A stretch of DNA of 64,000 nt from a virus. Of the stretch, positions 23,902-23,975 are shown piece by piece. The notes below the pieces were generated by a model, which saw nothing but the letters and a program-made list of their open reading frames with translations, did no database searches and had not been told where the DNA came from. Position 1 is the first letter of the stretch. Each line of letters starts with the position of its first letter. The position numbers and the translations under genes are program-made. Where the stretch lies: the IMG/VR virus record IMGVR_UViG_3300019458_000001; one strand, 5' to 3'.

Positions 23902-23975
23902 GCCCCCGTAGCTGAGCACGTTTAGCGAGCGCCTCTAAAGCGCTGTCAACGCGGGTGCGAATCCCGCCGGGGGCA
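23902..23975 (+). tRNA. tRNA with anticodon CUA (amber/UAG suppressor); amino-acid identity unknown
   Basis: Manual cloverleaf. Acceptor GCCCCCG/CGGGGGC (7 bp). U8 A9. D stem GCTG/TAGC. Anticodon stem AGCGC/GCGCT. Loop CTCTAAA, anticodon CTA at 23935-23937 with U33 and A37. 6-nt variable loop. T stem GCGGG/CCCGC, T loop TGCGAAT. Discriminator A. CCA is not encoded. Confidence 0.65.

Follow-up and report, generated by a model that had tools for sequence, protein, structure and literature searches.

In prfB, the gene for release factor 2 (RF2), an early in-frame UGA senses RF2 and is bypassed by a +1 frameshift. Here we describe a phage locus in which a stop codon also lies close to the start of a gene of the translation machinery, and in which a phage-encoded tRNA may determine how often this codon is passed. 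The locus belongs to the IMG/VR virus record IMGVR_UViG_3300019458_000001, a metagenomic phage contig of 181,021 bp, ENA ERZ27251176 k141_208565, of which the first 64 kb were analyzed (64,000 nucleotides, "the window" in the following; 117 kb lie beyond it). It comprises a gene for a tRNA with the anticodon CUA, which reads the amber codon UAG, and, 60 nt downstream, a gene for a protein related to peptidyl-tRNA hydrolase 2 (PTH2), the form of this enzyme typical of archaea and eukaryotes, whereby an in-frame TAG at codon 5 of the latter forms what we call a gate. Judging from sequence comparisons, we consider it likely that a functional amber suppressor tRNA and a UAG-gated PTH2-like gene together constitute a conserved module. 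By analogy, the likeness to prfB would consist in a 5'-proximal stop codon that acts as a sensor in a gene of the translation machinery, with competition at this codon setting the yield of full-length protein. The two differ in that here the reading frame stays unchanged, the codon is UAG, a dedicated tRNA would decode it, and the product is PTH2-like and not a release factor.

Earlier work has described phage suppressor tRNAs as such, PTH2 genes of jumbo phages (PMC7824862 and PMC3622015), and the regulation of late genes by recoding. The recoded phages (crAss-like, Lak, Agate, and Jade phages, described with "code change modules") share with the window a CUA tRNA in a phage of standard-code hosts. 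Also common to both is the idea, put forward in the Borges et al. preprint, that an in-frame stop ties the translation of a gene to a phage tRNA. In the recoded phages, many late, structural, and lysis genes contain in-frame stops and the respective stop codon is depleted as a terminator, whereas in the window TAG is an ordinary terminator, and it is one small gene that carries a fixed N-terminal TAG and is linked to the tRNA across unrelated phages. A hydrolase target is reported neither in the Borges et al. preprint nor in the 2026 jumbo-phage survey. The same kind of tRNA occurs as an "orphan" suppressor in the standard-code jumbo phages XacN1, GAP32 (annotated as "Sup-tRNA"), and ME3 ("anticodon CTA"). 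The authors of the XacN1 study did not find the targets of its two CUA tRNAs; for GAP32 and ME3, the gated gene is present in the same genomes. An N-terminal gate is invisible to an approach of the XacN1 type, and the gene has been truncated or overlooked by annotators. Finally, synthetic amber-suppressor AND gates and leak dampeners (e.g., PMC7969014) follow an identical logic, in which both the mRNA and the suppressor tRNA are needed. Those gates are engineered, whereas the module of the window appears to be natural and widely conserved. Full-text literature searches brought up no PTH2-like gene that has an amber gate at its N-terminus and is linked to a suppressor tRNA, and it is this combination that appears to be new here.

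A TAG codon near the start of a PTH2-like gene

The PTH2-like gene (24035-24391, + strand) consists of 118 codons including the TAG and ends with a TGA at 24389-24391. A Shine-Dalgarno (SD) motif, AAAGGAGG, is read at 24023-24030 in front of the ATG at 24035-24037 (together 24023-24037, + strand), from where the gene reads ATG GCC GAC ACG TAG and continues with an open reading frame (ORF) of 113 codons. The in-frame TAG (24047-24049, + strand; M-A-D-T-TAG-E-A-R in translation) precedes any conserved residue of the protein. The ORF behind it shows a strong coding signature, with a GC content at third codon positions (GC3) of 0.91, and retains every invariant residue of the family. Past the TAG, no ATG, GTG, or TTG occurs before codon 46, and a start at this codon would remove the family-invariant motifs RxDL and QxxHAA. 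The public gene call for the locus (P0002; labels with P denote representative proteins and labels with L homologous loci) is a 68-aa fragment that begins at the ATG at 24185 and is devoid of the family-invariant motifs.

The AlphaFold2 (AF2) model of the protein (predicted local distance difference test score, pLDDT, 90.9) adopts the alpha/beta fold of Pth2. In a Foldseek search against the PDB, the best 15 matches were all of the Pth2/Bit1 type, with probabilities of 0.99-1.00, and the top 13 had template modeling (TM) scores of 0.64-0.74. The family profile matches the PDB entry 24bt_A, "peptidyl-tRNA hydrolase," with an E-value of 5.6e-05, and 11 of 13 aligned relatives match PF01981 weakly (best 2.2e-05); a direct sequence search of the window protein against the PDB gave no match. 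In the PDB alignment, RxDL and QSxHA are both preserved along with the Asp of "DAG," and D78 is invariant. The window family shares its fold with Pth2/PTRH2 (PF01981), with TM scores of 0.68-0.74 to MJ0051, Bit1, PH1539, AF2095, and the Sulfolobus Pth2, and compared with these it is a divergent paralogue. GAP32 also possesses a separate, canonical PTH2 (GAP32_382), to which hhalign matched the gated family over 11 residues only. We refer to the protein as PTH2-like, a putative hydrolase. Domain homologues in jumbo phages begin at about residue 9, and an uncharacterised PHROG is matched from its N-terminus. Altogether, the family includes 1281 representative clusters at E<=1e-10, and a search of 185,579 bacterial and archaeal species genomes revealed no member, be it as a cellular homologue or in a prophage. 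By its sequence distribution the family is confined to phages.

In the first relatives examined (L001, L002-4, L005-7, and L008), the arrangement SD-ATG-(1-3 codons)-ACG-TAG-domain is present throughout, while the residues around the TAG differ, and a CUA tRNA is located 45-120 nt upstream in all of them. Scans of viral and metagenomic contigs yielded 95 further loci, whose proteins are 32-71% identical to that of the window and whose GC contents span 30-63%. The leaders were analyzed in 81 distinct contexts, 73 of which were informative. Upstream of the conserved core, the nearest in-frame stop is a TAG in 68/73 contexts, a TGA in three, and a TAA in two. A start codon lies 1-7 codons before the TAG in 64 contexts, 57 of which have an SD motif, whereby leaders of two codons ("M-T-stop") and of four codons are the most common. 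The codon in front of the TAG encodes Thr in 41/64 contexts, and the base behind it is G or A in 62/64; a purine after UAG favours amber suppression, as known from work in E. coli. No canonical start is found between the TAG and the core in 55 contexts. In a frame-agnostic test, the best combination of SD and start within 90 nt of the core was determined for 60 distinct contexts; it is in frame 0 with the core in 59, with the TAG between start and core in 53 of these.

The gate is hidden in many public versions of the gene. For P0089, P0038, and P0034, the DNA shows TAG (L115 831-845, L116 148-156, and L117 324-332) where the proteins show Q, because the gene callers had switched to code 15 on short contigs. 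Such Q-bearing database proteins are additional gated members. Gln was considered as the inserted residue and not adopted, since the Q results from code-15 translation of the TAG and is no evidence for it. Other public versions are shortened to an internal GTG, TTG, or ATG. The locus thus exposes a systematic mis-annotation, in which the gene is truncated, missed, or given a Q at the TAG.

Some leaders deviate from the common pattern. Three loci of low GC content (L055, L059, and L103; GC ~0.35) have two in-frame TAGs in the leader, for example ATG GAA TTT CAA TAG ATT GAA AAA GAA GAG TAC GGA TAG AAC, and a CUA tRNA 280-410 nt upstream. In L100, the leader (1206-1230) is ended by TGA (ATG ATC ATG TTG TGA) and adjoins an irregular tRNA (1021-1096) with UUCA in an anticodon loop of 6 or 8 nt. 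Going by these sequences, L100 may represent the module in an opal form, with stop and anticodon changing together. A TGA leader also occurs in L016, in whose flanks no tRNA was found.

It might also be that the TAG is a true stop and that SD-ATG-xxx-TAG represents a minigene or upstream open reading frame, similar to the lambda bar minigenes that load peptidyl-tRNA. Synthesis of the domain would then depend on re-initiation or on a non-canonical start, or would not take place at all, and the tRNA could serve, for instance, as a decoy for an anticodon nuclease. The very short leader (modes of 2 and 4 codons) with its strong SD is indeed like that of toxic minigenes, the frequent Thr at the last sense codon could indicate a specific peptidyl-tRNA, and the downstream enzyme comes from a family that clears such products. 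However, re-initiation requires neither a certain frame nor a particular stop, yet nearly all contexts have an in-frame start (59/60) and a TAG as the stop (68/73), and the 55 contexts without an ATG, GTG, or TTG between TAG and core offer no canonical start for it. Moreover, the stop matches the anticodon of the co-located tRNA, and the TGA leader of L100 adjoins an odd tRNA with UCA in its anticodon loop. We therefore assign the minigene explanation a very small chance.

The CUA tRNA and its linkage to the gate

The initial annotation, made from the letters of the window alone, had described a 74-nt cloverleaf with the anticodon CUA at 23902-23975 (+ strand). Every structural detail listed there was found again with ARAGORN, Rfam RF00005, and a parse of the cloverleaf. 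ARAGORN called the tRNA at the same coordinates and placed CTA at position 34 (23935-23937). RF00005 aligned end-to-end over the 74 nt (model match 1-71) with 53.0 bits and an E-value of 1.5e-08, which is 24 bits above the gathering score of 29 bits. The acceptor stem (GCCCCCG/CGGGGGC) has seven Watson-Crick pairs and is followed by U8 and A9. The D stem (GCUG/UAGC) has three Watson-Crick pairs and G13-U22, and encloses an 8-nt D loop, AGCACGUU, with A14. The anticodon stem (AGCGC/GCGCU) is a perfect 5-bp helix, and the loop CUCUAAA, which is the same in 33/43 related tRNAs, has the standard 7 nt with U33 and a purine at position 37. A 6-nt variable loop (GUCAAC) leads to the T stem (GCGGG/CCCGC), whose loop is UGCGAAU (U54 G55 C56 G57 A58). 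The discriminator base is A, and the 3' flank reads TTACGT, so that CCA is not encoded. Together with the gene content of a large phage, the Rfam score well above the threshold agrees with the identification as a phage-encoded amber suppressor tRNA.

ARAGORN labelled the tRNA "Pyl" because of the anticodon alone. A tRNA-Pyl has a 6-bp anticodon stem, a 3-nt variable loop, one base linking the acceptor and D stems, and a very small D loop, and the genes pylS and pylBCD are expected in its vicinity. In the window tRNA, the anticodon stem measures 5 bp, the variable loop 6 nt, and the D loop 8 nt, with two linker bases (8-9), and the assignment as tRNA-Pyl was rejected; a Pyl-related Pfam match was not found among the neighbouring genes searched. 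Among the 43 CUA tRNAs, the discriminator base varies (A 28, G 12, U 3), and their sequences pointed to no isotype.

Linkage was scored within 3-kb flanks of 104 loci. A CUA tRNA is present in 53 of them, with 43 distinct sequences, and every other anticodon occurs at most seven times in the same flanks. The linkage extends to cultured phages. In Cronobacter phage GAP32 (JN882285 290132-290464), the leader is MAQ-TAG-NEKTWIYVFVRTDL, the annotated coding sequence (CDS) GAP32_397 is truncated, and the CUA tRNA, annotated as "Sup-tRNA," is 3.1 kb away. Acinetobacter phage ME3 (KU935715 166601-167422) has the leader MT-TAG and a CUA tRNA 430 nt upstream, which is one of four tRNAs; its annotated CDS begins inside the domain. 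In Salmonella phage Arash (OQ632216 ~49176-50560; leader ML-TAG), a CUA tRNA about 1 kb away is annotated as tRNA-Phe, and the hydrolase CDS gp84c is truncated. Serratia phage BF (KY630187 ~286080-286410) has the leader MTH-TAG without an annotated CDS; a CUA tRNA was not found within its 2.5-kb flanks, the rest of the genome not having been scanned. Several Erwinia and Yersinia relatives are likewise without an annotated CDS.

In Mycobacterium phage Myrna (L110), a PTH2-like gene, gp84, is surrounded by a cluster of tRNA genes. At its start (2465-2480) the sequence is GTG TAG GTG, whereby the SD spacing favours the GTG after the TAG, and ARAGORN detects a CUA tRNA 130 nt downstream (2960-3031), which the record annotates as tRNA-Ser. 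In RaK2 (L104), an ungated homologue (MCTEARRYVYILVRKDL) at 1492-1815 is immediately flanked by tRNA-Leu(UAA) and tRNA-Gly(UCC), at 1375-1462 and 1829-1904, respectively; the association between gene and tRNA thus persists without the gate.

The tRNA of the window departs from the canonical elbow: where G18-G19 (D loop) and T54-Psi55-C56 (T loop) are expected, it has C18, G19, U54, G55, and C56. The Rfam alignment, with C under G18, G under G19, and G under U55, reproduces the changed elbow of the initial annotation, which had been read there as covariation and not decay. This reading is strengthened by the comparison of 43 distinct CUA tRNAs from related loci, each of which was parsed: pairing is essentially complete in the stems of all 43, and changes at positions 55/56 track the loss of GG from the D loop. 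Of 35 tRNAs with U55-C56, 33 have GG in the D loop. Three tRNAs with U55-U56 all have GA where their relatives have GG, giving A19:U56, and three with G55-C56 (window, L068, and L083) are all without GG. In the two tRNAs with C55-C56 (L005 and L011), GG is present. The sister tRNA of L005, which has the D stem GCUG/UAGC and the variable loop GUCAAC in common with the window, shows G18:C55 as the counterpart of C18:G55. These patterns support that tertiary pairs are kept by compensating changes, with the caveat that position 18 in D loops of unequal length is placed by homology and that C18:G55 is a single event. Variants compensated at 18:55 and 19:56 provide a natural data set for asking which tertiary pairs of a tRNA are able to change.

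The elbow also bears on the explanation that the locus holds a decaying pseudo-tRNA next to a pseudogene inactivated by a nonsense mutation. G55 and C18 do break near-universal tRNA positions, CCA is not encoded, and the public call is only a 68-aa fragment. Against decay, the stems are paired throughout, the Rfam score exceeds its threshold by 24 bits, and the elbow changes are correlated across the family. The neighbouring ORF keeps its GC3 of 0.91 and its invariant residues behind the TAG, and the same "nonsense mutation" would have to be present in 68 distinct contexts. We regard decay of this kind as extremely improbable.

The nearest syntenic relatives, L001 (tRNA at 9720-9794) and L114 (2527-2601), have a suppressor tRNA of another, canonical lineage in this position (GCUCCCG, GGCC D stem, CCA encoded), whereas the window tRNA resembles that of the distant L005. 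This sequence pattern suggests that the tRNA has been replaced or exchanged inside a conserved module.

Use of TAG in the window and a possible role of the gate

In a composition-filtered set of 68 window ORFs, TGA serves as the stop in 38, TAG in 18 (~26%), and TAA in 12, in line with the earlier observation that TAG still ends many genes. Among the TAG-ended genes are those for a 1035-aa primase (17461) and a RusA-like protein (23384). A periodicity-based scan of the window for in-frame stops returned six TAG, six TGA, and four TAA candidates, and a start-proximal in-frame TAG is present in exactly one ORF, the PTH2-like gene. Code 11 leaves the genes of the baseplate module (393, 479, and 937 aa) intact, and of the structural genes in the window, the baseplate hub and its neighbours, two are TAG-ended. 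No further in-frame TAG excess was found in the long (3-kb) flanks of 30 relative loci with 30-63% GC. The in-frame scan, the flanks of the 30 loci, and the stop usage led us to reject global TAG recoding for the sequence seen. Because TAG otherwise ends about a quarter of the window genes, the TAG of the PTH2-like gene points to gene-specific gating and not to a code change. The initial annotation had likewise argued for gene-specific or temporally controlled suppression without a global code change; for the 64 kb, gene specificity without a code change is upheld by the lack of an in-frame TAG excess and by the single gated ORF.

A broader, code 15-like recoding of TAG, e.g., in late genes within the other 117 kb, would make the gated TAG one of many. 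Suppressor tRNAs are typical of TAG-recoded phages, in which, according to the Borges et al. preprint, it may be the late genes alone that are recoded. The window covers 64 kb of a 181-kb contig, the three low-GC relatives have two leader TAGs, and code 15 was chosen by some gene callers for short contigs with this gene. On the other hand, TAG terminates 18/68 window genes, in-frame TAG candidates are no commoner than TGA candidates, the structural genes of the window are intact under code 11, and the 3-kb flanks of the relatives show no other TAG excess. GAP32, ME3, and Arash are annotated with the standard code, and for Arash there is a virion proteome. Random recoding would also leave unexplained why TAG is fixed at codons 2-7 of one family across lineages. 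Overall, we consider broader recoding unlikely.

The candidates for read-through at 13449 and 29234 were discarded; the start lies a few codons downstream in both, and they look like ordinary gene junctions. A second in-frame stop follows within 0-5 codons in 5/18 TAG-ended ORFs (e.g., 3309, 5612, and 57424, all on the - strand) compared with 0/38 TGA-ended ORFs. Such close back-up stops could reflect selection against read-through; several of these ORFs are doubtful, and the observation was not used as evidence.

From the sequence features described above, we infer that the tRNA is expressed, charged, and decodes the UAG at 24047. Termination by release factor 1 (RF1) at the UAG would then free a tetrapeptide in the window (a peptide of 1-6 residues across the family), whereas decoding by the suppressor would yield the full-length PTH2-like enzyme. 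The enzyme level would be set by, and proportional to, suppressor decoding versus RF1 termination. The inserted residue would fall into a non-conserved tail, so that its identity should not matter, as expected for a purely regulatory gate. As for the reason for gating, it might be that suppression, in a phage with about one quarter of its genes ended by TAG, causes read-through, stalled ribosomes, and peptidyl-tRNA, and that the enzyme clears the stalled products, while it is itself produced only during suppression and only to a matching extent. It could also be that the enzyme deacylates the suppressor's own ester and limits suppression by feedback. In both forms, demand-matching and feedback, this rationale is held with low confidence, and a pure delay timer would be another. 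Taken together, the suppressor tRNA and the PTH2-like enzyme gated by UAG at codons 2-7 might form a widespread, phage-specific translational sensor, i.e., a self-referential circuit, to which an anticodon-less, CCA-ended RNA (see below) would belong in the GC-rich clade. Production of the enzyme would then serve as a readout of suppressor activity, and the enzyme would for its part attack tRNA esters, perhaps including that of the suppressor. We see the chances for and against this wider proposal as evenly balanced.

Several points weigh against a functional and conserved module. About half of the loci have no CUA tRNA in their 3-kb flanks. Another suppressor could be encoded elsewhere in the genome, 64 of 181 kb having been seen. 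The proportion of gated contexts (93%) is an overestimate for the whole superfamily, because the loci were sampled with peptide patterns from the window's own subfamily, and there are family members without a gate (RaK2 ORF216, XacN1 ORF364, P0046, P0053, and P0073). Concerning the protein, the window sequence gives no PF01981 match even at E<=1, and the catalytic Lys of the Pth2 "GK" is aligned with His or Gln in this family. Finally, the window tRNA itself could be impaired, with G55 replacing the universal U55.

Phage suppressor tRNAs have hitherto been explained by genome-wide recoding. Many standard-code phages possess one for which no target is known, and a conserved single-gene target would give them a testable function. 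If the proposal is correct, standard-code phages run a controlled and self-limiting stop-codon read-through, and the missing target of the "orphan" suppressor tRNAs in standard-code jumbo phages is supplied. Stop-codon suppression would thereby be tied to tRNA recycling or quality control, by a natural tRNA-gated translational switch of a design familiar chiefly from synthetic biology. For its study, tractable systems are available in GAP32 (host Cronobacter), ME3 (Acinetobacter), and Arash (Salmonella).

Further elements of the locus and the phage

Between the tRNA and the gated gene, a promoter-like TTGACA-N17-TAGTCT is located at 23986-24014 (+ strand). It is the only match in the 64-kb window and is present at the same place in L001, L002, L008, and L114. 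A strict scan for the sigma-70 consensus gave no site, since TAGTCT deviates too far from the -10 element, and a promoter function of the motif is presumed from its sequence and position. Downstream, a 92-aa gene (24378-24656, + strand) shares its first 14 nt with the end of the PTH2-like gene, stop codon included, and translational coupling of the two is probable. A gene of the same size is found at the same place in L001, L005, L008, and L114. Its product has no match in Pfam or PHROG, and five homologue clusters were found.

The window further encodes the anticodon-less tRNA-like RNA mentioned above (24962-25041, + strand), which scores 43 bits with RF00005 and is called "tRNA-???" by ARAGORN. 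Its acceptor, D, and T arms are normal, CCA is encoded, and the D loop (AGAGAAA) lacks GG, whereby the anticodon arm is replaced by an 8-bp tetraloop hairpin, the perfect palindrome CCGGTCCCGGGACCGG. Across the tRNA-like RNAs, the hairpin measures 7-9 bp, and the tetraloop is CCGG in the window and GCAA, GAAA, or UUAG in relatives. The RNA lies downstream of the PTH2-like gene in L001 (10778-10857), L008 (2723-2802), L009 (two copies, 3411-3488 and 3582-3660), L025-27, L033, L043, and L114 (3360-3439). RNAalifold predicts a cloverleaf with compensatory changes in six pairs. By its conserved position, we count this RNA as part of the module in the GC-rich clade. It is unable to decode, and could act as a decoy, a cofactor, or a regulator of the hydrolase.

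The gene content indicates that the window (62% GC) stems from a large phage. When the tRNA and its surroundings (5 kb) were compared by megablast with 50,697 phage records, there was no match, and no close relative was found in INPHARED. The encoded proteins include a baseplate-hub protein, a PD-(D/E)XK nuclease, a helicase, and a DnaG-type primase. The gene for a RusA-like Holliday-junction resolvase (22596-23384, + strand), whose C-terminal extension weakly matches an HNH-endonuclease PHROG, ends with TAG at 23384, shortly before the tRNA region. A 908-aa ORF (38278-41004, - strand) shows weak intein-splicing and LAGLIDADG matches at residues ~98-369, which suggests, from the sequence, an intein inside this protein. 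A single ORF of 2067 aa (32078-38281, - strand) encodes an RNA polymerase beta-beta' fusion with Rpb2 domains 3 and 6 and Rpb1 domains 1, 2, 4, and 5. Its closest cultured relatives are those of Vibrio phage D69 and Salmonella phage Arash (~29-32% identity), and the virions of Arash are rich in RNA polymerase beta and beta' (Arash paper).

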